64,000 nt of DNA, taken from NCBI RefSeq assembly GCF_041886205.1, contig NZ_CP169029.1, one strand, 5' to 3'. The notes under the pieces were generated by a model. It did not search any database, had not been told where the DNA came from, and was given only the letters and a program-made list of their open reading frames with translations. The translations under genes were made by a program, and so were the position numbers. The DNA is from Escherichia coli. GTDB taxonomy: Bacteria; Pseudomonadota; Gammaproteobacteria; Enterobacterales; Enterobacteriaceae. The first letter of the stretch is position 1, and each line of letters opens with the position of its first letter. Positions 1,794 to 39,491 of this stretch are shown here, one piece after another.

Positions 1794-3284
1794 TTACAAT
1801 AACCATTCCACGGGCAATATCGACGCCAGTCTGACCATAACCCGCTTCCAGAAACTGGTGGCGGGTTCTTTTTTGAGAATAATCTCTTTCTTTGCATGAC
1901 GATCAACCCAGTTGATCCGTCCCCACCTGTCCAGACGGAGCTGCCAGGCCGCATCATACTGGCTCTGAATAAAGCGTTTATCAATTAACTGTGCCAGCGT
2001 TTCGCTCTCTATCACGAAGCCCATTTCAGTATTGAGCAATGTTGAACGCGGATCGAAATTGAAAGAGCCGATAAACACCGTTTTACCATCGATGCTAAAG
2101 GTTTTAGCATGCAGGCTGGCACCGGAATTACCGGTTATGCCGCGATCGTGTAACGTACTACTTTGTTCACGCGTCGGCTTGAGTTCATATAATTCCACGC
2201 CATAGCGGAGCAATTTTTTGCGCCAGCGCGCGTATCCGGCATGGACGACAGCAACATCGTTAGCGGCAAGAGAATTGGTTAGGATCGCAATCTTTACCCC
2301 TTTTCTCACCATCCGTAAGAGTTGTGCCACACCTGCTCGTGTCGGTACAAAATAGGAAGAGATAATATCGATGCGTTCACTGGGTGAGCCCATGATATCG
2401 AACAGGCGCTGCGGTAACAGTGAATGCCGTTTTGCCTTGCCCTCCCCTTTCGCCGGATCATCACTTAATAAACGTGTTTTCGCCCAGATAAGCGGCAACG
2501 TTCCATCAACCAGATGATTTATAAACGGACTGGATTCCATTTTGCGTAAGTAACGATGCGTCATGGCATCGTTATGCCAGGAGGCGGGTAACTCGATGCG
2601 ATCCGCCATTTCACCTTCCGGGACATCCAGCACCTGCTGTAAGGGTGAAACCGATTTGCAATACCAGTAGCGGGCGAAATCATCGGCAACGTCCTCTACC
2701 ACGGGTCCTATTGCCATGACATCTAAATCCGAAAAAAGTGGCTCCTCCCCTGCTCCAAAATAGGCATCACCAATATTTCGTCCTCCCACCAGGGTCACCA
2801 CGCCATCGACAGTGAAACTTTTATTGTGCATACGGCGATTAAGACGGGAAAAGTCGGTGATATAACCAAGCGGACGCAGCAAGCGAAACGAGAAAGGATT
2901 AAAAAGCCGGACTTCAATGCGTGGATGACTGTCAAGCAAGCGTAAAATGTCGTCAAGTCCGGGCGTATTGTTGTCGTCCAGCAACAAACGGACGCGAACG
3001 CCACGCTTTGCTGCGGCTAACAGGGCGGAAAACAGTAACCGACCCGACATATCGTCCTGCCAGATGTAATACTGAACATCGAGCGTATGCTCTGCCATTT
3101 CGGCCAGACGATACCGGGCGGCAAACGCATCCAGACTTTTCTCCAGAGGAAAAAGGCCACACTGACCGGGATGTTGCGAACACAGTGGCAGCACCGCGCT
3201 CGCCAGCCGGGGCAAATCATTCATCTCCTTGTTGGGTAAGGAGTCTTTCGTAGAGGTGGGCGTTTTCTTCATCATAACAGACAA
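1794..3284 (-). CDS. clsC: Cardiolipin synthase C (PLD-family)
   Basis: 496-aa ORF with PLD-type HxK motifs ([15 protein letters not shown]); start may be internal (ATG near 3224); overlaps ymdB 3' end. Confidence 0.85.
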
Positions 3285-3750
3285 AGTATACCTGTTCGGG
3301 TAAAGCGTGACGGGTAATAAATTCTGAAACGGTTTTTACTGCGATTTCAGCCGCTGCCGCACGAGGGTAACCATAAACCCCAGTACTGATTGCAGGAAAA
3401 GCCACTGACGTATAGCTGTTTGCCGCCACCAGTCGCAGGCTATTGAGATAGGCATCCTGCAAAAGCTGGTCTTCGTTTTGTTCACCACCACGCCAGACTG
3501 GCCCGACGGTGTGCACTACGGCTTTAGCGGGAAGATCGCCTGCAAGCGTAATAACGGCATGCCCCGTAGGGCAATCGCCCTGCTGTTGCCTGACTTTTAA
3601 ACAGGCATCCAGCAGGGCCGGACCCGCTGCGCGATGAATGGCCCCATCGACGCCGCCGCCTCCCATTAATGACGGATTAGCCGCATTCACAATCACATCA
3701 ACGGCCAGTTTGGTAATATCACCCTGCACAACATGAATACGCGTTTTCAT
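3217..3750 (-). CDS. ymdB: O-acetyl-ADP-ribose deacetylase, macrodomain protein YmdB
   Basis: 177-aa ORF starting [25 protein letters not shown] with [13 protein letters not shown] macrodomain motif. Confidence 0.9.
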
Positions 3751-11916: not shown

Positions 11917-12004
11917 GGTGAGGTGTCCGAGTGGCTGAAGGAGCACGCCTGGAAAGTGTGTATACGGCAACGTATCGGGGGTTCGAATCCCCCCCTCACC
12001 GCCA
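11917..12004 (+). tRNA. serX: tRNA-Ser (GGA anticodon, long variable arm)
   Basis: 88-nt sequence GGTGAGGTGTCCGAGTGGCTGAAGGAGCACGCCTGGAAAGTG...GGTTCGAATCCCCCCCTCACCGCCA with acceptor stem, D and T arms, CCA end; marks the island boundary. Confidence 0.9.
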
Positions 12005-15485: not shown

Positions 15486-15971
15486 TCAGTCGATGATGCG
15501 CATAATGGCGCTGCATTCCGGATGCTGCAGGGCGTAATCCCGCAACCGGTAATAATGGACCGTCATGGCATAACACTCCGTACGACAGGCGTGATGACTG
15601 TACGTCATCAGACAGGCAGCAATGCCGGCGGCTTCCGGGCTCATTTCAGCGCGGTTGCCGTTCATGGCATTGAACAGTACCCATGTTTCGTCATCATCGT
15701 CATCCGGTTCGGGGGCCATAAATGCCCCGCCGTTGTTCAGAGTGTACAGATTCCAGATACCACCGCAGTAGTCTTCGCACAGACGGTCCATCCAGCCGAA
15801 AACACGGGGCTCCAGGGTCACCCACTGTGGAATGAGGCCAAAATGCTGCGGCCAGAAGCTGATGCGCTGTTCATCAGGGACTATGGTGGCAACCAACTGA
15901 GGCTGGTCATTCCCTGATGCAGCGGTTACGGAAACAGAAGATGTGGTGGAATTATGTGAAATGGTTTTCAT
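15486..15971 (-). CDS. Antirestriction protein (KlcA/ArdB-like, YfjX family)
   Basis: 161-aa ORF abutting the radC-like gene; acidic stretch PEPDDDDDETWVLFNAMNG; typical CP4-type module order. Confidence 0.7.
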   Translation of the reverse strand: MKTISHNSTTSSVSVTAASGNDQPQLVATIVPDEQRISFWPQHFGLIPQWVTLEPRVFGWMDRLCEDYCGGIWNLYTLNNGGAFMAPEPDDDDDETWVLFNAMNGNRAEMSPEAAGIAACLMTYSHHACRTECYAMTVHYYRLRDYALQHPECSAIMRIID

Positions 15972-24870: not shown

Positions 24871-25389
24871 ATGACGATTCTTGAAGAAATGGAAGCAGAA
24901 GCATGGCATATCCTAACAACCATCTATACGTATCAGCGGTTGATGGAAGGCCTTACTAATAGCAGTACAAGATATGAGCTTGCCAATCAGTTGGTAGCCC
25001 TCAATGCATTGTTGGAAATGTTGGTGATCCGTTTAGCGCGTCTTGCGGATAAAAGGAAAGATGTGAGATCTGTATCAATGTTTTTGAAACGCGGCTCGTA
25101 TTCTGCTTCACCAGAGGCTGTGAAATTGGCAGCTGAAAAGTTCCTTGCACTCACAGAACCAGTATTAAAGATTAGGCATGAGCAGATTGCACATATGAAG
25201 CCCGGCACACTCAGTAGCTTCGAGCCTCGAGAACTTCCAAATGAAGCTCTGAGAGCAACTGAGGCTCTAATCGATCTCATTGACATTGCCAGAGGTCACC
25301 CTCAGTCTTACACATACCGAGTTGGCTCACAGGAGCCTGCCATTAATTTGAGAGCTTCAGTAGAGACTAGCGAACTAGTTAAAATCTAA
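24871..25389 (+). CDS. Hypothetical protein, 172 aa, possible HEPN-like R-x5-H motif
   Basis: ORF in AT-rich DNA; contains KIRHEQIAHMK; no family recognised; convergent with the 459-aa gene. Confidence 0.5.
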   Translation: MTILEEMEAEAWHILTTIYTYQRLMEGLTNSSTRYELANQLVALNALLEMLVIRLARLADKRKDVRSVSMFLKRGSYSASPEAVKLAAEKFLALTEPVLKIRHEQIAHMKPGTLSSFEPRELPNEALRATEALIDLIDIARGHPQSYTYRVGSQEPAINLRASVETSELVKI

Positions 25390-25525: not shown

Positions 25526-26905
25526 TCAGTCATAAAATTTATTTTTGCCTTTTGACGTCATGAGAAGGAAATATGAAGGGTGACTCTTTATTTCTGAAGA
25601 GTGGCTTGTTATACTAAAAACCTCTTTTAGAATCGTAAAGGCTCCTGTAGCCAACGACACTGGATTTGGTGCCCCAATAAAACCTATCAATGATGGCGCA
25701 ATGTTAAGAAAAAGTTCTTTATTACTTTTCCGCTTATAGGTCTGTATTTTTTGCTCAATATCGGTCAATCCTTCATCCCATATGCGCTCGACAAAATGCT
25801 GATTTATCAGCTGCCTCTTATATGGGTCACTTTCTGCTTCTATGTCATACGCAGCTTCACGTAGCACAGAGCGGAAGGCATTAAAACTCGATTCGTAGTC
25901 AGTTCTAATTTTGTAGAGTTCACTTGGAGTAAGCCCCTCTAGAAATGGAACGTCAATAGAGAGTTTAACCCTCTGAACTTCATTCCTTTGATCCAGTTTA
26001 CGAAGAATTTCTCCATGAAATGGGCAATATGCGCCCAGGGACGCTCTGCATGAATGCGCTTGGTTAAGATCAGTAATAAGGTTTTTATAATGAAAGAGAA
26101 CTGTACGATTTTTTGCTCCCTGCACCCACCGTTCATAACTTTTTTTTCCGCTATGCTTTCCCATGACAATTTCCATAGACATGGTACCATCATCATTATC
26201 AATGGCATTATTTATATGTTGATACATATATCCATTTGTATACGAGCTTTCGCAGCCTTTAATTTTCAACATAATTTCATTCGTTAAAACATTTCTGTTT
26301 AACAACCGAATTTTATTTGTGTTGCCCAGACGTTCTATATTCTGTACGGATAGTCTACTTTCATACAGACGGGCAATATTAGGGGGGAGATATCGAAATA
26401 GGAAATTAGTATCAGAGTTATCTTCTAAAATTCCATTAGCTCTCTCCGAATCTTTAATAGAGGATTCTCTTCGTACAAAAACGATAAACTCTCCACGGAT
26501 AAGATCAAAGTTTTCTTTAGCAAACCTGATAAACCTAGCAATTTCCTTCCTGAGATGTTCAACCTTCTCTTTGCTATCGCTTTCAATAAATTTTTCAACT
26601 ACGTTTTCTGATAGATTTACCCTGTATCGTAGGCTCAATGAATATAGAACGTCATCAAGAATGACTCTGTCCATTGAAAACAAACCACTCTTATACCTTT
26701 CAATATTACGATTCCCCGCCATGTAAACATTCAGCCGGGACTCCTGTACAGAATTTGTTTGTTCGATAATGAATGAATCTATCCTTTTATTATATTCAGC
26801 TAATTCAACTAGCAATTCGTTCAATCCGATATTTTCATATTCCTGTTCTAAAAGTCGATCAACCCAAAAAAGGCTTTCTGTGAGCGCATAGAGGTTGTTG
26901 TACAT
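25526..26905 (-). CDS. Hypothetical protein, 459 aa, no recognisable domain
   Basis: Long uninterrupted ORF in visibly AT-rich DNA, Lys/Glu/Asn-rich, no TM segments; sits between the GTPase and the type I RM operon. Confidence 0.6.
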   Translation of the reverse strand: MYNNLYALTESLFWVDRLLEQEYENIGLNELLVELAEYNKRIDSFIIEQTNSVQESRLNVYMAGNRNIERYKSGLFSMDRVILDDVLYSLSLRYRVNLSENVVEKFIESDSKEKVEHLRKEIARFIRFAKENFDLIRGEFIVFVRRESSIKDSERANGILEDNSDTNFLFRYLPPNIARLYESRLSVQNIERLGNTNKIRLLNRNVLTNEIMLKIKGCESSYTNGYMYQHINNAIDNDDGTMSMEIVMGKHSGKKSYERWVQGAKNRTVLFHYKNLITDLNQAHSCRASLGAYCPFHGEILRKLDQRNEVQRVKLSIDVPFLEGLTPSELYKIRTDYESSFNAFRSVLREAAYDIEAESDPYKRQLINQHFVERIWDEGLTDIEQKIQTYKRKSNKELFLNIAPSLIGFIGAPNPVSLATGAFTILKEVFSITSHSSEIKSHPSYFLLMTSKGKNKFYD

Positions 26906-27857: not shown

Positions 27858-28094
27858 TTGAACCTGATACCACATTTAGCTAATTTAGCTAACTTATCCA
27901 GTATACCAGTGGTTGCCATGAATATGAATGAAGACGAGATTTATCGTCATATCCGGCAGGCACTTTCCAGTGCGCCGCGTAACCAGTACACCGTCGAGCT
28001 GCACCTGCAAATGATTAAATATGCCGACGAACTGGAACACATTACGGCAAAAGCCTTTTGCGAAGGCACCGGTCTGAATACCGATCTGCTGTAA
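27858..28094 (+). CDS. Small hypothetical ORF upstream of hsdM
   Basis: 78-aa ORF (possible internal start MNMNEDEIYRHIRQ...) ending 40 bp before hsdM; no family recognised. Confidence 0.25.
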   Translation: MNLIPHLANLANLSSIPVVAMNMNEDEIYRHIRQALSSAPRNQYTVELHLQMIKYADELEHITAKAFCEGTGLNTDLL

Positions 28095-28133: not shown

Positions 28134-30572
28134 ATGGCTATCAAAAAAACCGAACTCTATTCTTCCCTGTGGGCAAGCTGCGACGAACTGCGTGGCGGGA
28201 TGGACGCCAGCCAGTACAAAGACTATGTACTGACCCTGCTGTTTATGAAGTACGTTTCCGATAAGTATAAAGGCGATCCTTACGGGATGATCGTGATACC
28301 CAAAGGAGCCAGCTTTGACGATATGGTTGCGCTGAAAAATGACAAAGAGATCGGCGATAAAATCAACAAAATCATCCACAAGCTGGCGGAAGAGAACGGC
28401 CTGAAGGGCGTCATCGACGAAGCCGACTTTAACGACGAAGATAAACTCGGCAAAGGCAAGGAAATGATTGACCGCCTGAGCAAGCTTGTCGGTATCTTTG
28501 AAGGGTTAGATCTCTCCAGCAACCGGGTCGAAGGCGACGATCTGCTGGGCGATGCCTATGAATATCTGATGCGTCACTTCGCAACCGAATCCGGCAAGAG
28601 TAAAGGACAGTTTTACACTCCGGCGGAGGTGTCACGTATTCTGGCAAAGGTGATTGGTATTACTCCCGATACGCCGCGAGATGCAACGGTTTATGACCCA
28701 ACCTGTGGCTCTGGTTCGCTGCTGTTGAAAGTGAATGATGAAGCCCGGCGCGGACTGTCGATTTTCGGCCAAGAGATGGATAACGCTACCAGTGCGCTGG
28801 CGCGGATGAACATGATTCTGCATAACAATGCCACCGCGAAAATCTGGCAGGGCAATACGCTGAGTGATCCGCAGTGGAAAGAGGCGAACGGCAAACTGAA
28901 AGCCTTCGATTTTGCCGTGGCGAACCCGCCTTTTTCCAATAAAAACTGGACCAACGGGCTGACGCCGAAAAAAGATCCGTTTGAACGCTTCGGCTGGGGT
29001 ATTCCGCCGGAAAAAAACGGCGATTATGCTTTTTTGTTGCATATCATTAAAAGCCTGAAAAGTACCGGCAAAGGCGCGGTGATCCTGCCCCACGGCGTAC
29101 TGTTTCGCGGTAACGCCGAAGCGAATATCCGTGAAAACCTAATCAAGCAGGGCTATATCAAAGGCGTTATTGGTTTGCCAGCCAACCTGTTTTACGGCAC
29201 CGGCATCCCGGCGTGCATCATTGTGATTGATAAAGAGCACGCCCACAGCCGCAAAGGCATTTTTATGATCGACGCCAGTCGGGGCTTTATCAAAGATGGC
29301 AACAAGAACCGCCTGCGTAGCCAAGATATTCACCGTATTGTGGACGTGTTCAACCATCAGCGAACGGTGCCAGGCTACAGCCGGATGGTGCCCTCCAGCG
29401 AGATCGCCGGGAATGATTACAACCTGAATATTCCTCGTTATATCGAGAGTGGAGAGCCGGAAGATTTGCACGATCTGACCGCGCACTTACAGGGCGGTAT
29501 TCCAGTGCGCGATGTAGATGCTTTGAAGGATTACTGGCGGGTATTCCCTGCCCTGCGTAATGTGCTGTTTGCTGACGACCACCCCGGTTACTGCCGGGCG
29601 CAAGTGGACGCGCAGCAGGTGAAACCGACCATTCTGGCTCATCAGGAGTTTAAGGATTTTGCCACCCGCAGCCTGCTACCGTTTAAGTCGTGGGTAAAAG
29701 AGGCAGGTCTGGAAGAGATCCGCAAAGGAGATAAACCCAAAGCGCTAATCCACGATATCAGCGAAATGCTATTGGCGCAGTACGCCAACAGTGAGTTGCT
29801 GAACAAATACAGCGTGTACCAGATCCTGATGGATTACTGGGCTGATGTCATGCAGGACGATGTGTATGTGATTATGCAGGATGGCTGGAAAGCCGCCGCG
29901 CAAATCCGCGAGCTTCAGCCGGTGAAAGGCAAAGATGGCAAAAACATCTGGAAAGAAACGCACGATTTCGAGTTTACCAAACGGCGCTACAAGGCCGATG
30001 TGCTGCCCCGTTCGCTGGTGGAAATTCGCTGTTTCCCGGAACTGCTGGATGCGCTGAACCGCGCGCAGGAGCGCAGTGAAGAAGCCAGTCGTCAGCTAGT
30101 GGAATTCATCGAGGAGCAGGCAGGGGAAGAGGATCTGCTGGCTGAGGTGAAAAACGATAAAGATAAGGTGACGCAAAAGCTGGTGAATGCCCGTCTGGCA
30201 CAGTTGAAGCCCCCCCCTGCCGACCCGGATGAGCTGGCAGTGCTGAACCGCTGTCTGGCGCTGATTAAGGCCGAGGCCAGTGCGAAAAAAGCGCTGAAAG
30301 CCGCACAGGAAGCGTTGGATCGAGCGGTATTTAAACATTATCCCACGCTGGATGAAGCAGCGATTAAAACGCTGGTAGTGCAGGATAAGTGGCTGGCAAC
30401 GTTGCAGGCAGGGATCAAAGCGGAGATAGAGCGTATTACCCAGCAACTGGCGTCGCGCGTAAAGGAGCTGGAAGAGCGTTATGCTGAACCGTTGCCAGCA
30501 CTTGAAGCCGCCGTTGAGGCGTTGAGCGAGAAAGTGGCCGGGCATTTGCGGGCGATGGGGCTGGAGTGGTGA
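28134..30572 (+). CDS. hsdM: Type I restriction-modification system methyltransferase subunit M with long C-terminal extension
   Basis: 812 aa; HsdM N-terminal domain (MAIKKTELYSSLWASCDELRGGMD), AdoMet motif VYDPTCGSGSLL, catalytic NPPF (FDFAVANPPFSNKNW); about 300-aa Ala/Glu/Lys-rich helical tail. Confidence 0.9.
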   Translation: MAIKKTELYSSLWASCDELRGGMDASQYKDYVLTLLFMKYVSDKYKGDPYGMIVIPKGASFDDMVALKNDKEIGDKINKIIHKLAEENGLKGVIDEADFNDEDKLGKGKEMIDRLSKLVGIFEGLDLSSNRVEGDDLLGDAYEYLMRHFATESGKSKGQFYTPAEVSRILAKVIGITPDTPRDATVYDPTCGSGSLLLKVNDEARRGLSIFGQEMDNATSALARMNMILHNNATAKIWQGNTLSDPQWKEANGKLKAFDFAVANPPFSNKNWTNGLTPKKDPFERFGWGIPPEKNGDYAFLLHIIKSLKSTGKGAVILPHGVLFRGNAEANIRENLIKQGYIKGVIGLPANLFYGTGIPACIIVIDKEHAHSRKGIFMIDASRGFIKDGNKNRLRSQDIHRIVDVFNHQRTVPGYSRMVPSSEIAGNDYNLNIPRYIESGEPEDLHDLTAHLQGGIPVRDVDALKDYWRVFPALRNVLFADDHPGYCRAQVDAQQVKPTILAHQEFKDFATRSLLPFKSWVKEAGLEEIRKGDKPKALIHDISEMLLAQYANSELLNKYSVYQILMDYWADVMQDDVYVIMQDGWKAAAQIRELQPVKGKDGKNIWKETHDFEFTKRRYKADVLPRSLVEIRCFPELLDALNRAQERSEEASRQLVEFIEEQAGEEDLLAEVKNDKDKVTQKLVNARLAQLKPPPADPDELAVLNRCLALIKAEASAKKALKAAQEALDRAVFKHYPTLDEAAIKTLVVQDKWLATLQAGIKAEIERITQQLASRVKELEERYAEPLPALEAAVEALSEKVAGHLRAMGLEW

Positions 30573-31921
30573 TGGTGGATTTAATGGTGAATGAGCAACG
30601 GTCGGGTACGGCGGGGAAAGATGTGCCTGCGGGGTATAAGCTGACTGAGGTGGGGGTGATTCCTGAGGATTGGGTAGTAATCTCTATTGATGACTGTACA
30701 ACCAAAGTTGGTAGTGGAAAAACACCAACTGGTGGAGCATCTGTTTATATTGATAGCGGACGCCCTTTTGTCCGTAGCCAAAATGTTGATTGGGGAAGAT
30801 TAGATCTCGCCGATGTCGTACATATTACAGATGAAACCCATAACACATTCTCTGGTTCTGAAATTCAGCAAGATGATGTTTTACTCAACATAACGGGAGC
30901 ATCTATCGGCCGATGCGCTAAAGCTGATTTTAGGGTTATAGGTGGTAATGTTAACCAACATGTTTGCATCATCAGAACAGAGGCAAAAAAACTCTCCCCA
31001 TCCTTACTGGTTGAATTAATCAATTCAAATTATGGACAAAACCAGATTGATAGTTATCAAGCCGGAGGAAACAGAGAAGGACTGAATTTTTCTCAAGTTA
31101 AAAATCTTAAGTTTGCTATTACACCAAACTCCTTTGAACAAACGGAAATTGTCAGAACATTAAATGATATTAATGCATTTACTCTCGCTCTGGAAAACTT
31201 AATTGCTAAAAAACAGGCCATAAAAGCCGCTGCTATGCAACAACTACTTACCGGTAAAACCCGTTTGCCACAGTTTGCGTTGCGCAAAGATGGCTCTGCT
31301 AAGGGATATAAAAAGAGCGAGTTGGGGGAGATTCCTGAAGATTGGAATTGTATTAATCTTGGTGAGCTAGGTAATTGCATTATTGGGTTAACTTACAAAC
31401 CTGAAGATACATCTGATTATGGTACATTGGTATTACGCTCATCCAACATTCAAAATAATCACTTAGCTTATGATGATAACGTCTTCGTCAGCATAGAACC
31501 ACCTGAGCGCACAATTGTGAAAGAAGGTGATATCTTGGTATGTGTAAGAAATGGCAGTCGCCAACTTATTGGCAAATGCGCATTAATTGACAAAAATGCG
31601 CAGGGCTCAGCATTCGGTGCATTTATGTCAGTATTCCGAACTGATATATATGGATTTACATTTCACCAATTCCAGTCTGATATTATTCAAAAGCAAATCG
31701 CTGAAGTTATGGGTGCCACTATCAATCAGATAACTAACAAAGATATGTTGGGCTTTAAAATCCCATTACCTGAAAATACAGAAGAACAAGCCGCCATCGC
31801 CGCCATCCTCTCCGATATGGACAAGGAAATCCAGATCCTGCAACAGCGTCTGGACAAAACCCGCCAGCTTAAGCAAGGGATGATGCAGGAACTGTTAACC
31901 GGGAAAATCCGCTTAATATAG
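30566..31921 (+). CDS. hsdS: Type I restriction-modification specificity subunit S
   Basis: 451 aa; two target-recognition domains each followed by conserved helical repeats (QAIKAAAMQQLLTGKTRLP and QAAIAAILSDMDKEIQILQQRLDKTRQLKQGMMQELLTGKIRL); start overlaps hsdM stop. Confidence 0.9.
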   Translation: MVMVDLMVNEQRSGTAGKDVPAGYKLTEVGVIPEDWVVISIDDCTTKVGSGKTPTGGASVYIDSGRPFVRSQNVDWGRLDLADVVHITDETHNTFSGSEIQQDDVLLNITGASIGRCAKADFRVIGGNVNQHVCIIRTEAKKLSPSLLVELINSNYGQNQIDSYQAGGNREGLNFSQVKNLKFAITPNSFEQTEIVRTLNDINAFTLALENLIAKKQAIKAAAMQQLLTGKTRLPQFALRKDGSAKGYKKSELGEIPEDWNCINLGELGNCIIGLTYKPEDTSDYGTLVLRSSNIQNNHLAYDDNVFVSIEPPERTIVKEGDILVCVRNGSRQLIGKCALIDKNAQGSAFGAFMSVFRTDIYGFTFHQFQSDIIQKQIAEVMGATINQITNKDMLGFKIPLPENTEEQAAIAAILSDMDKEIQILQQRLDKTRQLKQGMMQELLTGKIRLI

Positions 31922-31933
31922 AAGGGAAAGCAC

Positions 31934-32590
31934 ATGGCTTATGATTACAGCGCCAGCCTCAACCCGCAAAAAGCTCTGATCTGGCGTATCGTCCATCGGG
32001 ACAATATCCCGTGGATTCTGGATAACGGGCTGCACTGCGGCAACAGTCTGGTGCAGGCGGAAAACTGGATCAATATCGGCAACCCGGAGCTGATCGGCAA
32101 GCGTGCCGGGCATCCGGTACCTGTCGGAACGGGCGGGACACTGCATGACTATGTGCCGTTTTATTTTACCCCCTTCTCGCCAATGCTGATGAACATCCAC
32201 AGCGGGCGCGGCGGCATTAAGCAACGCCCCAATGAGGAGATCGTTATTCTGGTCAGCAACTTGCGAAACGTGGCAGCACACGACGTACCCTTCGTGTTTA
32301 CCGACAGCCATGCTTACTATAACTGGACCAACTACTACACCAGTCTGGATAGTCTGGACCAGATCGACTGGCCCATTTTGCAGGCACGGGACTTTCGCCG
32401 CGATCCAGACGATCCGGCTAAATTTGAACGCTATCAGGCAGAGGCGCTAATCTGGCAACACTGCCCGATCTCTCTGCTGGATGGGATAATTTGTTACAGC
32501 GAAGAGGTCAGGTTACAATTAGAACAATGGCTGTTTCAGCGTAATCTAACAATGTCCGTTCACACACGGGCTGGATGGTACTTCTCATGA
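31934..32590 (+). CDS. darT: DarT-like ssDNA ADP-ribosyltransferase toxin (DUF4433)
   Basis: 218 aa; motifs [30 protein letters not shown] and QAEALIW align by eye with DarT family; RBS GAAGGGA upstream; 16-bp overlap with darG. Confidence 0.85.
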
Positions 32591-33654
32591 TCACATATAC
32601 ACAAGGCAATTTACTGGACGCACCGGTGGAAGCTCTGGTGAATACGGTTAATACCGTCGGTGTCATGGGGAAAGGCATCGCGTTGATGTTTAAAGAGCGC
32701 TTCCCCGAAAATATGAAAGTCTATGCCCTCGCCTGCAAACAAAAGCAGGTGATCACCGGCAAAATGTTCATTACCGAAACCGGGGAACTGATGGGACCGC
32801 GCTGGATTGTTAATTTTCCGACCAAACAGCACTGGCGCGCTGATTCCCGCATGGAGTGGATTGAAGATGGCTTGCAGGACTTACGCCGCTTTTTGATTGA
32901 AGAGAACGTGCAGTCCATCGCCATTCCACCACTGGGCGCAGGCAACGGTGGTTTGAACTGGCCGGACGTTCGGGCGCAGATTGAATCTGCCCTTGGCGAC
33001 CTTCAGGACGTTGATATCCTGATTTACCAACCGACTGAAAAATACCAGAACGTTGCCAAAAGCACTGGCGTAAAAAAGCTCACTCCCGCCAGAGCCGCCA
33101 TCGCTGAACTGGTGCGTCGCTACTGGGTATTGGGGATGGAGTGCAGCCTACTGGAAATCCAGAAACTGGCCTGGCTGTTACAACGCGCCATTGAGCAGCA
33201 TCAACAGGACGATATCCTCAAACTGCGGTTTGAAGCTCACTATTATGGCCCCTATGCGCCCAATCTGAACCATCTGCTTAATGCGCTGGACGGCACCTAT
33301 CTTAAAGCCGAGAAACGCATCCCGGACAGCCAACCGCTGGATGTGATCTGGTTTAACGATCAGAAAAAAGAACACGTTAATGCGTATCTGAACAACGAAG
33401 CCAGAGAGTGGCTACCTGCGCTGGAGCAGGTCAGCCAGTTAATTGACGGCTTTGAATCGCCGTTTGGTCTGGAGTTGCTGGCAACCGTAGACTGGTTGCT
33501 GAGCCGTGGCGAATGTCAACCAACGCTGGATTCCGTTAAGGAAGGGCTGCACCAGTGGCCTGCGGGCGAACGCTGGGCCAGCCGTAAGTTGAGGCTGTTT
33601 GATAATAATAATCTGCAATTTGCCATTAACCGCGTAATGGAGTTCCATTGCTGA
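32575..33654 (+). CDS. darG: DarG-like macrodomain antitoxin (ADP-ribosylglycohydrolase)
   Basis: 359 aa; N-terminal macrodomain ([36 protein letters not shown]) plus C-terminal domain; translationally coupled to darT. Confidence 0.85.
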
Positions 33655-33672: not shown

Positions 33673-36600
33673 TTGAGTACCGTGGGCCAGCGCGAACGCG
33701 CCACACAGCAGCGTCTGATTCAGTTTTTTGTTGAAGATTTAGGTTACCGCCATCTGAGTCACCGCACCGGGTACACCGGGAACAGCAACATCGACACTAA
33801 TATACTGAGCGCGTGGCTAAAACGGCGCGGCGTTAATGATACGTTGATCACCCGGGCGTTGCGGCAACTGGATTCCGCCGCCGCTCTGGGCGAAGGCAAA
33901 AAACTCTATTACGCCAATAAAGAGGTCTATCGCCTACTGCGTTACGGCGTGAAAGACAAAGAAGGCGCAGGCGAGCAGAACCAAACCGTGTGGCTGATTG
34001 ACTGGGCCAACCCACAAGCCAATGATTTCGCCATCGCCGATGAGGTGACGGTCAAAGGCGAGTACTGCAAGCGCCCGGATCTGGTGCTGTACGTTAACGG
34101 CATTGCGCTGGGCGTGATTGAACTTAAGCGTTCGTCAGTGCACGTCAGCGAAGGCATCCGGCAGAATCTCGATAATCAAAAGAAAACCTTTATCCGCGAT
34201 TTCTTCACCACTATGCAGTTAGTGATGGCGGGCAACGATACGCAGGGCCTGCGCTACGGCACCATCGAAACCCCGGAAAAATACTATCTGGAGTGGAAAG
34301 AAGATAATCCAGGCGACTATACACATAAACTCGACTTTCATTTAAGTCGTCTGTGTAGCAAATCCAGGCTGTTGGATATCGTCCATAATTACATTGCCTT
34401 TGATGTCGGGGTGAAAAAACTCTGCCGCCATAATCAGTTCTTCGGCGTCGAGGCGGCTAAACAACATATTGCCCGTCGTGAAGGCGGTATTATCTGGCAC
34501 ACACAGGGATCGGGTAAAAGCCTGACGATGGTCTGGCTGGCGAAGTGGATCCGTGAAAATGTGCCAAACTCCCGCGTGTTGATTGTGACTGACCGCACCG
34601 AACTGGATGAACAGATCGAAAGCGTGTTTATGGGCGTGAATGAAGATATTTATCGCACCTCCAGCGGCAACGATCTTATCGCAACGCTCAATCATCCTAA
34701 CCCGTGGCTCATTTGCTCGCTGGTGCATAAATTTGGTCGTCGCAGCGAAGCTGAAGACAATGCAGCTACCGACGCCTTTATCACCGAATTACAGCACTCC
34801 CTGACGAAAACATTCCGCGCCAAAGGCGATCTGTTTGTTTTTGTGGACGAGTGCCACCGCACACAATCCGGCAAGCTGCATAACGCCATGACTGCCATTC
34901 TGCCGGACGCCCTGTTTATCGGTTTTACCGGCACACCGCTGATGAAGAAAGATAAGAAGAAGTCGGTTGAGGTGTTCGGCCCTTATATCCATACCTATAA
35001 ATTTGATGAAGCGGTGGCCGACGGTGTGGTGCTGGATCTGCGCTACGAGGCACGCGATATTGACCAGTATCTGACATCAGAGAAAAAGGTCGATGACTGG
35101 TTTGAAGCCAAGACTCGCGGTTTGTCGAATTTAGCTAGGACCCAGCTTAAGCAAAAGTGGGGATCAATGCAGAAGCTGCTCTCCAGCAAGTCGCGGCTGG
35201 AGCAGATCGTTAACGACATTTTGCTGGATATGGATACCCGTCCACGCCTGATGGACGGGCGCGGCAACGCCATGCTGGTATGCAGCAGTATCTATCAAGC
35301 CTGCAAGGTTTACGAGATGTTCAGCCAGACCGAGCTGGCAGGAAAAGTAGCGATTGTGACCAGCTATCGCCCCGATGCCGCCAGCATCAAAGGCGAAGAA
35401 ACGGGCGAAGGGTTAACGGAGAAACTCTCTAAACACGCCACCTATCGTAAAATGTTGGCTGACTATTTTGAACAAAGTGAAGAGAAGGCCGCCGCACGCA
35501 TTACCGAGTTCGAGCGGGAAGTGAAACAGCGTTTTATTGAAGAGCCGGGGCAAATGCGCCTGCTTATCGTGGTGGATAAGCTGCTGACTGGCTTTGACGC
35601 GCCGTCCGCCACCTATCTCTACATTGATAAAACCATGACCGACCATACGCTGTTTCAGGCGATTTGTCGGGTGAACCGGCTGGACGGTGAGGATAAAGAG
35701 TATGGCTATATTATCGATTATAAAGATCTGTTCCGTTCGCTGGATAAAGCGATTACCGATTACACCACGGGCGCGTTTGATGATTACGATCGGGACGATG
35801 TGGCCGGGTTGCTGAAAGACAGGCTAGAGCAGGCGCAACTGGATCTCGACAGCGCGCTGGAGATGGTTCGCAGCTTATGTGAACCCGTCAAAACCCCGCG
35901 CAGCCTGCAGGACTATCAGCACTATTTTTGCGGTGAATCAGGAGAGAATCAGACTTCGTTAAACGAAAAAGAGGCGCTGCGCCTGACATTTTACCAGTGC
36001 GTCGCCCGTCTGCTACGCGCTTATGCCAACATCGCCAATGAAATGCCGGAAGCAGGCTACACTGCCGAAGAGGTAGAGAGCATTCGCGCCGAAGTCGCTG
36101 AATTCGAAAAACTGCGCTATGAGATTAAGCTGACCAGCGGCGATCTTCTGGATATGAAGCGCTTTGAACCCGCTATGCGTCATTTACTGGATATGTATGT
36201 TCGCGCCGATGATAGCGAAGTGCTGATGGATTTTGAAGAGTTAAGTCTGATTGAACTGATTGTCGAGAAAGGCTTGGCGGCGACCGTCGCCCTGCCGGAT
36301 GATATCCGTAATAATCAGGATGCGATGGCGGAAACCATCGAAAACAACGTGCGCAAAACCATCGTGGATGAAAACCCGGTTAACCCAAAATACTATGGAC
36401 GCATGTCGCAACTGCTGGATGAACTGATTACCCTTCGCCGACAAAATGCGCTCAATTATCAGCAGTATCTGGAACGTATCCGCGATTTGTGTAAACAGGT
36501 CATCCGCCCGGAGCAAACCGCCGGAGCGTGCTACCCTGCCACCATGGATACACAAGCAAAGCGCGCCTTCTATGATAACTTCGGCCACGACGAGGTACTG

Positions 36601-36768
36601 GCGACCCGCATAGATACGACGATTCGCTATACCAAAAGGGCAGAGTGGATTGGCGATCGTTTTAAAGAACGGGAAATTGCCAACGCATTACGTGAAGAGA
36701 CCGCCAGCTATAATATTGATATTGATGAGGTGATAGCGCTTGCCCGTCAGCAGAAGGAATATCACTGA
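33673..36768 (+). CDS. hsdR: Type I restriction enzyme endonuclease/translocase subunit R
   Basis: 1031 aa; helicase motifs GSGKSLTM (Walker A) and FVFVDECHR (DEAH-like), N-terminal nuclease region; probable TTG start at 33673 preceded by AAGGAG. Confidence 0.9.
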   Translation: MSTVGQRERATQQRLIQFFVEDLGYRHLSHRTGYTGNSNIDTNILSAWLKRRGVNDTLITRALRQLDSAAALGEGKKLYYANKEVYRLLRYGVKDKEGAGEQNQTVWLIDWANPQANDFAIADEVTVKGEYCKRPDLVLYVNGIALGVIELKRSSVHVSEGIRQNLDNQKKTFIRDFFTTMQLVMAGNDTQGLRYGTIETPEKYYLEWKEDNPGDYTHKLDFHLSRLCSKSRLLDIVHNYIAFDVGVKKLCRHNQFFGVEAAKQHIARREGGIIWHTQGSGKSLTMVWLAKWIRENVPNSRVLIVTDRTELDEQIESVFMGVNEDIYRTSSGNDLIATLNHPNPWLICSLVHKFGRRSEAEDNAATDAFITELQHSLTKTFRAKGDLFVFVDECHRTQSGKLHNAMTAILPDALFIGFTGTPLMKKDKKKSVEVFGPYIHTYKFDEAVADGVVLDLRYEARDIDQYLTSEKKVDDWFEAKTRGLSNLARTQLKQKWGSMQKLLSSKSRLEQIVNDILLDMDTRPRLMDGRGNAMLVCSSIYQACKVYEMFSQTELAGKVAIVTSYRPDAASIKGEETGEGLTEKLSKHATYRKMLADYFEQSEEKAAARITEFEREVKQRFIEEPGQMRLLIVVDKLLTGFDAPSATYLYIDKTMTDHTLFQAICRVNRLDGEDKEYGYIIDYKDLFRSLDKAITDYTTGAFDDYDRDDVAGLLKDRLEQAQLDLDSALEMVRSLCEPVKTPRSLQDYQHYFCGESGENQTSLNEKEALRLTFYQCVARLLRAYANIANEMPEAGYTAEEVESIRAEVAEFEKLRYEIKLTSGDLLDMKRFEPAMRHLLDMYVRADDSEVLMDFEELSLIELIVEKGLAATVALPDDIRNNQDAMAETIENNVRKTIVDENPVNPKYYGRMSQLLDELITLRRQNALNYQQYLERIRDLCKQVIRPEQTAGACYPATMDTQAKRAFYDNFGHDEVLATRIDTTIRYTKRAEWIGDRFKEREIANALREETASYNIDIDEVIALARQQKEYH

Positions 36769-37484
36769 TGCCAATCATGCAAATAGGCTCGTTACACTTG
36801 CTGGTCAACCGTAAGGCGATTAAGAATCTGCATATCAGCGTGCTGCCGCCTGATGGCAAAGTCCGCGTTTCAGCGCCGGAACATATGACGGAGACGGCGA
36901 TTCGTATGGCGGTTGCTTCACGCTTTCGCTGGATCAGAAAACAGCAGCAGGATTTCGCCAGACAGCCTCGTCAATCAGAGAGGGAAATGGTCAGCGGAGA
37001 GTGCCACTATCTTTGGGGCCGAAGATATCGCCTACTTGTGATTGAGCGTCACGGGCGTCACGAAGTAAAAGTTGCGGGAAATAATAAGCTCCAGCTTTAT
37101 GTTCAACCGGGAACCCGTGATGAAAATAAGGCATTGGCGTTAAGTGAATTTTATCGACATGAACTAAAACAGCAGGTGGCTAAGCTTCTACCTGAATGGC
37201 AGGACCGAATCGGTGTTCCCCTAACATTCTGGGGCATCAAAAAGATGAAAACCTTTTGGGGCACCTGTAACACTACAACAAAACGAATCTGGCTCAATCT
37301 GGAGCTAATTAAGAAGCCGCCGGAGTGTCTGGAGTATATTCTGGTGCATGAACTGGTTCATCTTCTGGAACGTCACCATAATGCTCGCTTCCGGTTGCAT
37401 ATGGATCGGTTTATTCCTGACTGGCGTGAGCGTCGGGATTTGTTAAATAATATGCCGTTAGCGTTTGAGGCATGGGAGTATTGA
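36768..37484 (+). CDS. M48/DUF45-family zinc metallohydrolase (YgjP/WLM-like)
   Basis: 238 aa; HExxH motif in ILVHELVHLLERHHNARF; start overlaps hsdR stop, indicating co-transcription. Confidence 0.7.
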   Translation: MPIMQIGSLHLLVNRKAIKNLHISVLPPDGKVRVSAPEHMTETAIRMAVASRFRWIRKQQQDFARQPRQSEREMVSGECHYLWGRRYRLLVIERHGRHEVKVAGNNKLQLYVQPGTRDENKALALSEFYRHELKQQVAKLLPEWQDRIGVPLTFWGIKKMKTFWGTCNTTTKRIWLNLELIKKPPECLEYILVHELVHLLERHHNARFRLHMDRFIPDWRERRDLLNNMPLAFEAWEY

Positions 37485-38273: not shown

Positions 38274-38609
38274 TCAATTTTCGTATTTAAATTCAATATT
38301 AATCTTTAAAGCCTCTACATCTACTGTCACTTCACAGCCATGCCAGAATGGTTTTTCCTGAGATTTAAAGTTATCTAGAAAATAATTTCTTAATTCCACA
38401 AGAAAATCAAATAAATCACCGTTTGCTTGTGCCCCTGCCGAAAACCAATCAGTATTGCCAGTATCTGCATTTATATAGTCAAATTCACATTTACAATGAT
38501 CATTTTCAGGAGACAGTTCTGCTCTCATGATCACTTTGGATGCATTTTCAGGCGCAATGGATAGCAATACTGAACCTATATCATTATAAATCTCTTGATC
38601 AGTCCTCAC
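38274..38609 (-). CDS. Putative CdiI-type immunity protein of orphan module
   Basis: 111-aa ORF whose ATG directly follows the stop of the VENN-containing toxin fragment; no family recognised, assignment by gene context. Confidence 0.5.
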   Translation of the reverse strand: MRTDQEIYNDIGSVLLSIAPENASKVIMRAELSPENDHCKCEFDYINADTGNTDWFSAGAQANGDLFDFLVELRNYFLDNFKSQEKPFWHGCEVTVDVEALKINIEFKYEN

Positions 38610-39038
38610 CTACTTACCTCCGGGTACATTTTTAAACGTTTCAGATACCGGCCTTATGCTGTTACCTGTATAAGATGGCTGGATATTAACTTTAATGCTC
38701 ACTATCCCTGACTCATCCATCTGCTGCATCAACAGAACGGATAAGTCATTCTTCATTGCCCACGGAATATCTTCACCCAATGCCCTGTCTATGGCTTCGT
38801 GAACCAACAAACTGTTAGCAGGGATGTCACCGTACTTCTCTTTGCAGGCTGTCGGGCTCGAAGCACATGTTGCGATCAGTTCATTACGCTGCTTGAGACT
38901 CAGATCTTCCATTTCTTTCACGATCTGACCACAGTCACCACGGGCCTCACAACCTTTCGCCCTCGCCGCAAAGTTATCGATCTGATCAGCACTCAGGTAG
39001 TTATTCTCAACAACAATCCCAACTAAAAGGGTTGGGAT
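38610..39038 (-). CDS. Orphan CdiA C-terminal toxin fragment (VENN motif, no N-terminal region)
   Basis: Reverse-strand frame opens after TAA-TGA stops and reads IPTLLVGIVVENNYLSADQIDNFAARAKGCEARGDCGQIVKEMEDLSLKQ...; VENN encoded at 39000-39011; only an internal ATG. Confidence 0.6.
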   Translation of the reverse strand: MPTLLVGIVVENNYLSADQIDNFAARAKGCEARGDCGQIVKEMEDLSLKQRNELIATCASSPTACKEKYGDIPANSLLVHEAIDRALGEDIPWAMKNDLSVLLMQQMDESGIVSIKVNIQPSYTGNSIRPVSETFKNVPGGK

Positions 39039-39039
39039 T
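39013..39039. repeat. Hairpin at junction of the two toxin/immunity modules
   Basis: AATCCCAAC-TAAAAGG-GTTGGGATT between the stop of the 147-aa gene and the VENN fragment. Confidence 0.4.
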
Positions 39040-39047
39040 CATTACCC

Positions 39048-39491
39048 TTATGTATAAAGACTATCGTCGTAGGGTGCTTCAGTCAGAATTTTTTGAATTT
39101 CATGTCGTGCTTTTAGCTCCCATGAAAGATTCATATTTGCCATTAACTCAATAAATTTTGGGAACGCGATACGTCGTCCATCTCTGCCTTTAACCCTGTG
39201 TTCTAATTCATATTGGAATGCTGTCTTATAAGCGAGTTCTGACATGATCCAATAAAGTAGCTCATCTAGTGACCTAGTAACCTTCCGCGAGAATTCATAA
39301 CCTCTTTCTGAATGAATGTAATTATATACATTGTTTTCAAATGTAACATATGGTGTGCCATCACCAATTGGAGCGGAACAAAGATTAACTGAATGTCTTG
39401 GGAGACCAGCTTGCAAGGTCAACGCGTCAATTTTCCTTTGTATTTCATTGATATTCAGCAACATATTAGCGAACCTCACGAATATATCCAT
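39048..39491 (-). CDS. Putative immunity protein of upstream orphan toxin module
   Basis: 147-aa ORF whose start overlaps the 3' end of an upstream start-less toxin-like frame by about 26 nt. Confidence 0.45.
   Translation of the reverse strand: MDIFVRFANMLLNINEIQRKIDALTLQAGLPRHSVNLCSAPIGDGTPYVTFENNVYNYIHSERGYEFSRKVTRSLDELLYWIMSELAYKTAFQYELEHRVKGRDGRRIAFPKFIELMANMNLSWELKARHEIQKILTEAPYDDSLYT

Follow-up and report, generated by a model that had tools for sequence, protein, structure and literature searches.

A DarT/DarG pair inside an Escherichia coli type I restriction-modification operon, very probably part of an rptR-deleted allele of the known RRDM phage-defence island

Do the two overlapping genes that lie between hsdS and hsdR, in a 64,000-nucleotide stretch of an Escherichia coli chromosome (hereafter the window), encode a DarT/DarG toxin-antitoxin pair, and if so, is the nesting of such a pair in a type I restriction-modification (R-M) operon new? 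The first-pass annotation of this DNA had identified the pair and had suggested that the operon provides two layers of defence. We find that the pair is genuine and that the arrangement is already known. We are highly confident that the locus is best explained as an allele of RRDM, a phage-defence island already published for E. coli, which here lies in the island that is inserted beside tRNA-Ser, downstream of ghrA.

The first of the two genes (darT, 31934..32590 on the plus strand) encodes a protein of 218 amino acids that is a DarT2 toxin by every family model that we used. It matches Pfam's PF14487 across the whole model (positions 1-201 of 201, E = 3.4e-53), NCBIfam's equivalog NF048013 (262.6 bits, with a cut-off of 150), and the DarT model from PADLOC (1.9e-74). 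Among proteins with solved structures, its sequence matches Thermus DarT (7omv, 1.6e-26), and it also aligns with DarT from M. tuberculosis (7yk3_A). Both of the motifs that had been proposed as signatures of DarT/DUF4433 are indeed there (LHDYVPFYF at residue 70 and FVFTDSHA at residue 120), and the conserved glutamate that had been noticed in QAEALIW (at residue 168) is E170. These motifs line up in the alignment to 7omv, and the crystallised chain carries alanine at the position of the glutamate; presumably, this is the crystallised E160A mutant. The catalytic glutamate, which is E170 in this protein and in DarT from EPEC, corresponds to E160 in the Thermus enzyme. G49 is also present. At the nucleotide level, darT from the window is 100% identical to genes that are annotated as darT in E. 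coli genomes.

The second gene (darG, plus strand) has two in-frame ATG codons near its beginning, at 32575 and at 32587. The longer open reading frame (32575-33654, 359 amino acids), which the first-pass annotation had used, overlaps darT by 16 bp. The genes overlap with either start, but ATG 32587 is the likely start codon, which gives a 4-bp ATGA overlap and a protein of 355 amino acids (32587..33654). ATG 32587 is the start in RefSeq (WP_000634203.1); the family models for DarG begin at residue 5-6 of the 359-amino-acid open reading frame; and this start places the catalytic lysine at K80, which matches the numbering of DarG in PMC11543638. One annotation of an O127:H6 strain uses the 359-amino-acid form.

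The second protein had been described as a macrodomain with a C-terminal extension, as in DarG, and the family and structure matches agree with this. It matches the equivalog NF048014 over its full length (451 bits, with a cut-off of 250) and the DarG model from PADLOC (1.5e-127). Pfam's Macro domain covers residues 22-133 of the 359-amino-acid form (4.7e-21), and the macrodomain is similar to the structures from T. aquaticus and M. tuberculosis (5m31, 4.2e-55; 5m3i, 1.5e-53). K80, which is critical for catalysis (PMC11543638), lies within NFPTKQHWR. Residues 183-351 match 7yk3_B, the C-terminal domain by which DarG from M. tuberculosis binds DarT (5.4e-13). The protein also has a weak match to SocA_Panacea. 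The profile-HMM searches that had been suggested as a check on the two genes gave significant matches to both the DarT/DUF4433 models and the macrodomain models, and nothing in our analysis contradicted the identification of DarT or DarG.

Because the antitoxin is a macrodomain protein rather than a NADAR protein, the pair is, as judged from the protein families, a DarTG2 (thymidine-modifying) system and not DarTG1 (the classes are as given in PMC11543638). The macrodomain gene lies directly downstream of darT and on the same strand.

The two genes sit inside a complete type I R-M system. Upstream of darT, hsdM (28134..30572, 812 amino acids) encodes the methyltransferase subunit, with a full-length match to PADLOC's MTase_I model (PDLC03027) and 280.8 bits to TIGR00497. 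It is followed by hsdS (30572..31921, 449 amino acids from the ATG at 30572), the specificity subunit, which matches PADLOC's Specificity_I model at full length (9.5e-134). Downstream of darG, hsdR (33673..36768, 1031 amino acids, with a TTG start) encodes the restriction endonuclease and translocase subunit, with a full-length match to REase_I (PDLC03044) and 546 bits to TIGR00348. All three PADLOC matches run end to end, and both TIGRFAM scores are past their cut-offs. The last gene of the island (36768..37484, 238 amino acids) is annotated as M48 and encodes a YgjP-like zinc metallopeptidase (PF01863, 1.6e-61). With rptR, which is discussed below, the order on the plus strand is rptR-hsdM-hsdS-darT-darG-hsdR-M48, tightly packed. 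The open reading frames and their strand bear out the claim that the pair is nested between hsdS and hsdR in the same orientation. Across the locus, the family matches have E-values of 1e-53 to 1e-135, which is far past chance.

These are the genes of RRDM, which was described as a seven-gene island of EPEC E2348/69 by Zhang et al., NAR 2025 (PMC12255303). We read the E2348/69 locus directly (NC_011601, 1150268-1159908) and compared it with the window. All seven open reading frames are in the same order, with near-identical proteins. DarG (355/355 amino acids, WP_000634203.1) and the M48 protein (238/238, WP_001122107.1) are identical; DarT is identical at 215 of 218 positions (the differences are Q97R, D139N, and A213S), HsdM at 806 of 812, and HsdR at 1025 of 1031. 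In HsdS, the N-terminal, central, and C-terminal segments alone match (186 of 478 alignment columns), and neither target-recognition domain is related to its EPEC counterpart; the window and EPEC thus differ in restriction specificity. The two loci share the junctions between genes, both promoter elements (-35 and -10), and the operator's TAGCTA motif, whereas the flanking genes are different. From this locus-by-locus comparison, we conclude that the window contains an allele of a published island that has been validated experimentally; its DarT and DarG are 98.6-100% identical to experimentally characterized proteins.

The novelty of the arrangement had been overestimated. Jankevicius et al. 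had already pointed out in 2016 that DarTG occurs in type I R-M operons (PMC5179494), and the EPEC island was characterized in 2020 and 2025. Lawaree et al., Cell Rep 2020, found that EPEC DarT ADP-ribosylates single-stranded DNA at TTT/TCT and stalls replication, and described a catalytic mutant (E170A) and an attenuated mutant (G49D); EPEC DarG counters DarT by means of its macrodomain and by C-terminal sequestration (PMC7003065). For these near-identical proteins, attachment by DarT of ADP-ribose, taken from NAD+, to thymidine within single-stranded DNA, removal of the modification by DarG, and binding of DarT by DarG have all been shown (PMC7003065). The type I enzyme of EPEC, likewise, has been shown to modify self DNA and to cut DNA that is unmodified. 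E170 and G49 of DarT, the macrodomain lysine of DarG, and the C-terminal sequestering domain are all found in the window. (The lysine is K54 in the numbering of PMC7003065, where the mutant is K54A, and K80 in the 355-amino-acid numbering.) As DarT from the window is identical to EPEC DarT at all but three positions, we predict that it is a thymidine ADP-ribosyltransferase that acts on single-stranded DNA and is relieved by DarG.

The proposal that the operon provides two layers of defence agrees with the results from EPEC E2348/69, where RRDM protects against phage as a unit. When carried on a plasmid, the EPEC island protected cells from several phages by a factor of 10^3 to >10^7, and hsdM was induced more than 15-fold upon phage infection (PMC12255303). 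In other genera, the slot between hsdS and hsdR holds other gene pairs, and it has been suggested to be a hotspot for defence cargo (PMC12255303).

The window differs from EPEC in how the island is likely to be regulated. In EPEC, RptR represses the island's promoter via three TTTAGCTAA repeats, which contain TAGCTA and overlap the -10 box, and two TAGCTA operator sites suffice for repression (PMC12255303). By matching to this promoter, we located the promoter and RptR operator of the window at 27858..27901 on the plus strand. The -35 element is TTGAAC (27858-27863) and the -10 element is AGCTAATTT (27878-27886). The operator has two of the 9-bp TTTAGCTAA repeats rather than three (27875-27883 and 27884-27892), so that there are two TAGCTA sites overlapping the -10 box (27875-27892), and RRDM is expected to have at least two. 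The third unit is degenerate (CTTATCCAG at 27893-27901): it reads TATCCA, which is outside the four variants that permit binding, whereas strain DA33137 has TATCTA, a permitted variant, at this position.

The rptR gene itself (27924..28094, plus strand) is damaged. Aligning it to the intact rptR genes of DA33137 and EPEC revealed an in-frame deletion of 69 bp, between two GGTCTGAA direct repeats, which leaves 56 amino acids instead of 79. Intact RptR, as in DA33137, has 79 amino acids and matches PDB 9r2z. The 23 residues that are gone include E58, S60, and K61 of the recognition helix (alpha4) and L69 and A72 of the dimer interface, all of which were shown or modelled to be needed for DNA binding and repression (PMC12255303). 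The intact 79-amino-acid RptR with its alpha4 helix, which EPEC RRDM includes, is therefore missing from the window. Given the loss of the recognition helix, constitutive expression of the island is predicted: judging from the lost residues, the island is probably derepressed in the lineage that carries this deletion.

This deletion is not limited to the window. A 45-nucleotide query across the deletion junction matched 34 genomes, most of them from O157:H7 or bovine isolates, and the segment that is missing from the window's rptR was present in 213 genomes. If these sets do not overlap and if all 213 genomes carry darTG, then together they make up 247 of the 248 darTG-bearing E. coli genomes (see below). 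About 14% of the island-bearing E. coli genomes (34/248) have the rptR deletion.

Could the damaged rptR be a sign that loss of the island is under way, and that DarTG or the R-M system is no longer functional in this strain? PGAP labels the deletion allele of ZYB62, and that of O157:H7 17B6-2, as a pseudogene, and there are IS elements and gene fragments around the island. We consider decay to be extremely unlikely and reject it because all of the genes except rptR are full length. The other six genes have end-to-end matches to their family models; DarG and the M48 protein are 100% identical to functional proteins from EPEC; and in 34 genomes, the genes downstream of the deletion allele have stayed intact.

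The packing of the genes suggests that all seven are expressed as a single transcript, with translational coupling, from the promoter at about 27858-27886. Both hsdM/hsdS and hsdR/M48 overlap by 1 nucleotide (TGATG). The gap between hsdS and darT is 12 nucleotides, with AAGGGA ahead of darT, and the gap between darG and hsdR is 18 nucleotides, with AAGGAG ahead of the TTG start. A scan for terminators gave no convincing internal terminators: the terminator-like sites on the plus strand fall inside genes. A scan for promoters found 15 promoter-like sites, some of them inside hsdS and darT, which is no excess over shuffled sequence (12.7 +/- 4.0).

Among 5426 complete E. coli genomes that we compared to the 1721-bp darTG segment, 248 contain it. 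The identity is 95-100%, with 243 of 249 records reaching at least 99%, and darT and darG are annotated as such in every record listed. Queries across the hsdS-darT junction and across the darG-hsdR junction each retrieved the same 248 genomes, which implies that in E. coli, this darTG is always in the slot between hsdS and hsdR.

The closest match to the window is from strain ZYB62, a bovine isolate, and the window is part of an E. coli chromosome. It opens with mdoG-mdoC, the csg curli genes, ghrA, and tRNA-Ser (11917-12004), which are followed by a CP4-like island with a CbtA/YeeU toxin-antitoxin pair, an antirestriction gene, Ag43, and a GTPase. Two unannotated low-GC genes lie between the CP4-like island and RRDM, and searches of PADLOC, NCBIfam, and Pfam with two hypothetical genes that lie upstream, at 24871-25389 and 25526-26905, gave no match. 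After RRDM there are IS66, IS110, and IS3 debris and fragments of polymorphic toxins, and then a cluster for inositol catabolism.

The invariant nesting would also fit a different role for DarTG, which is to stabilize the R-M operon or the island against loss, as an addiction module rather than as a layer of phage defence. Jankevicius et al. 2016 offered this alternative for DarTG within type I R-M operons (PMC5179494), and the island lies in a mobile region that is rich in IS elements. However, both DarTG1 and DarTG2 defend robustly against phage when transferred into E. coli (summarized in PMC12255303 and PMC11543638), and the entire EPEC island is protective and is induced by infection (PMC12255303). 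We think it unlikely that addiction is the main role, and the two roles can coexist.

Our preferred reading is that the window carries an RRDM island with two layers of defence. The type I enzyme would methylate the host's DNA and cut unmodified incoming DNA, and the embedded DarTG2 would be a second layer that acts by abortive infection. In uninfected cells, DarG would neutralize DarT: the macrodomain, with K80, would strip the adduct from DNA and the C-terminal domain would sequester the toxin. During infection, DarT may escape from DarG and ADP-ribosylate the phage's DNA, leading to abortive infection (as summarized in PMC12255303 and PMC11543638). DarT would use NAD+ to modify thymidines in single-stranded DNA, at TTT/TCT if it behaves like the EPEC enzyme, and this would block replication. 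The seven genes would be expressed together, with translational coupling, from the promoter upstream of rptR. That promoter is repressed in EPEC by RptR bound to the TAGCTA repeats, and in the window it is predicted to be constitutive.

Finding darTG at this locus is a correct rediscovery from raw sequence, and it adds nothing to the published work of 2016, 2020, and 2025; PGAP already annotates darT and darG. What remains of value is the natural allele, which combines the rptR deletion with one operator repeat fewer than in EPEC. The lineage with this deletion is a natural test of the purpose of repression by RptR, and it could show whether a constitutive defence island that contains a toxin is tolerated.

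Among known systems, the one that the first-pass annotation had compared to this locus is PrrC. The gene for PrrC sits between hsdS- and hsdR-type genes in the prr locus (prrA-D), and this position could favor a similar wiring here, in which the R-M complex, besides DarG, keeps DarT latent and inhibition of the complex by an Ocr-type protein frees it. T7 encodes Ocr, an inhibitor of type I R-M systems, so something besides restriction may act on this phage. The EPEC island is about 1000-fold protective against T7 (PMC12255303). On the other hand, DarG by itself neutralizes DarT, by hydrolysis and by sequestration, and does not need any Hsd protein (PMC7003065). DarTG also works outside of R-M operons, as in M. 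tuberculosis and Thermus, and we found no report of an interaction between DarT or DarG and an Hsd subunit in the papers that we read. We consider it very unlikely that the R-M complex helps to hold DarT in check. A related proposal, which seems slightly less improbable but still quite doubtful, is that DarTG is functionally coupled to the type I enzyme and, like PrrC with EcoprrI, steps in once Ocr-type proteins have disabled restriction. In the O157:H7 and bovine lineage with the rptR deletion, the entire two-layer island would then be a natural variant that is always on.

The comparison to PrrC was a fair analogy as to position and goes no further. In both cases, a second and suicidal effector of defence is tied to a type I R-M system (type Ic for EcoprrI; PMC1484252). 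PrrC is kept latent by EcoprrI and is freed by an anti-restriction peptide of T4 (PMC1484252). PrrC is a nuclease that acts on tRNA(Lys), has no separate antitoxin, and is silenced by the R-M enzyme to which it is linked; in contrast, DarT ADP-ribosylates DNA, is paired with an enzymatic antitoxin of its own, and is not known to depend on Hsd proteins. We would not class the system in the window as a PrrC-type effector that is silenced by its R-M enzyme, and the likeness appears to be positional.

Other DarTG systems are closer relatives. Those of Thermus aquaticus, Thermus sp. 2.9, and M. tuberculosis, the prototypes of DarTG2, have the same two-gene architecture, with a toxin of the DarT fold family and an antitoxin that has a macrodomain and a C-terminal domain, although their sequences have diverged from those in the window and they are in other genomic contexts. 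Thermus DarT targets TNTC, whereas EPEC DarT targets TTT/TCT (PMC7003065). DarTG1 (DarT1-NADAR) likewise combines a toxin that ADP-ribosylates single-stranded DNA with an adjacent hydrolase as the antitoxin, and likewise defends against phage, but DarT1 acts on guanosine and is countered by a NADAR protein, while the antitoxin in the window is a macrodomain DarG (PMC11543638).

The repressor gene of the RRDM phage-defence island, rptR (27924-28094), carries a 69-bp in-frame deletion in the window, with its junction at about 28069-28079, and encodes 56 amino acids instead of the 79 of the intact protein. Through this deletion, which lies between direct repeats of GGTCTGAA, RptR loses its DNA-recognition helix (E58, S60 and K61) along with the dimer residues L69 and A72, so we predict that the island is expressed constitutively from this allele. 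PGAP labels the deleted allele as a pseudogene. The identical junction is present in 34 complete E. coli genomes, which are chiefly O157:H7 or bovine isolates.

The operator, to which RptR binds at the island promoter upstream of rptR, also varies. In the window (27875-27901) it has two TTTAGCTAA repeats, versus three in EPEC E2348/69, the strain of the published island. The next in-register unit in the window is TATCCA, which is outside the permitted RptR sites, while the corresponding unit in strain DA33137 is TATCTA, which is a permitted site. Therefore, both the copy number and the sequence of the operator differ between alleles.

Within the toxin-antitoxin pair, the 3' end of darT, upstream of darG, contains two hexamers that resemble a sigma-70 promoter (TTGTTA and TACAAT, 17 nt apart; 32491-32519, + strand). 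They could provide extra transcription of the antitoxin; across the region, the number of sigma-70-like sites is no higher than shuffled sequence gives. We also note that the 90% identity cluster that contains the DarT of the window holds DarG sequences, as well as a 450-amino-acid E. coli protein named "DUF4433 domain-containing". This protein could be a DarT-DarG fusion, or its open reading frame could have been mis-called in some assembly. The window contains a second macrodomain gene, the housekeeping O-acetyl-ADP-ribose deacetylase ymdB (3217-3750, - strand), which is unconnected with the role of DarG.

Just upstream of the island are two hypothetical genes, of 172 amino acids (24871-25389, + strand) and 459 amino acids (25526-26905, - strand), in a stretch with 36-41% GC. 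Neither has a PADLOC, NCBIfam, or significant Pfam match. Their position is taken by other genes in DA33137 and EPEC, and the stretch looks like a variable cargo slot adjoining the defence island, which may harbour uncharacterised defence genes. Farther upstream, a gene annotated as antirestriction by similarity to strain AH65 (about 15486-15971, - strand) is surrounded by CP4-type genes (JAB domain, DUF932, and a CbtA/YeeU toxin-antitoxin pair), and shares one tRNA-Ser island with the type I R-M system. A short way downstream of the defence island, at about 38.3-39.7 kb (38274-39491, - strand), similarity to strain ZYB62 identified a pair of short hypothetical genes, a gene of the "immunity 63 family", and a truncated piece of a TNT-domain toxin, followed by IS66 and IS110 fragments. 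This stretch looks like the remnant of a polymorphic toxin locus.

HsdM (28134-30572) has 812 amino acids, and TIGR00497, the classical hsdM model (515 positions), covers only residues 71-444. The C-terminal extension of about 370 amino acids beyond this match is kept across its R-M family, and the match to PADLOC's PDLC03027 is full-length. In HsdS (30572-31921), 186 of 478 aligned columns match the EPEC protein, and this likeness is confined to the conserved N-terminal, central, and C-terminal framework. GC content falls to 0.40 in the 1 kb at 31001-32000, nearly all of which is within hsdS. Both target-recognition domains are swapped relative to EPEC, so this allele should recognize a different DNA sequence from EPEC's.
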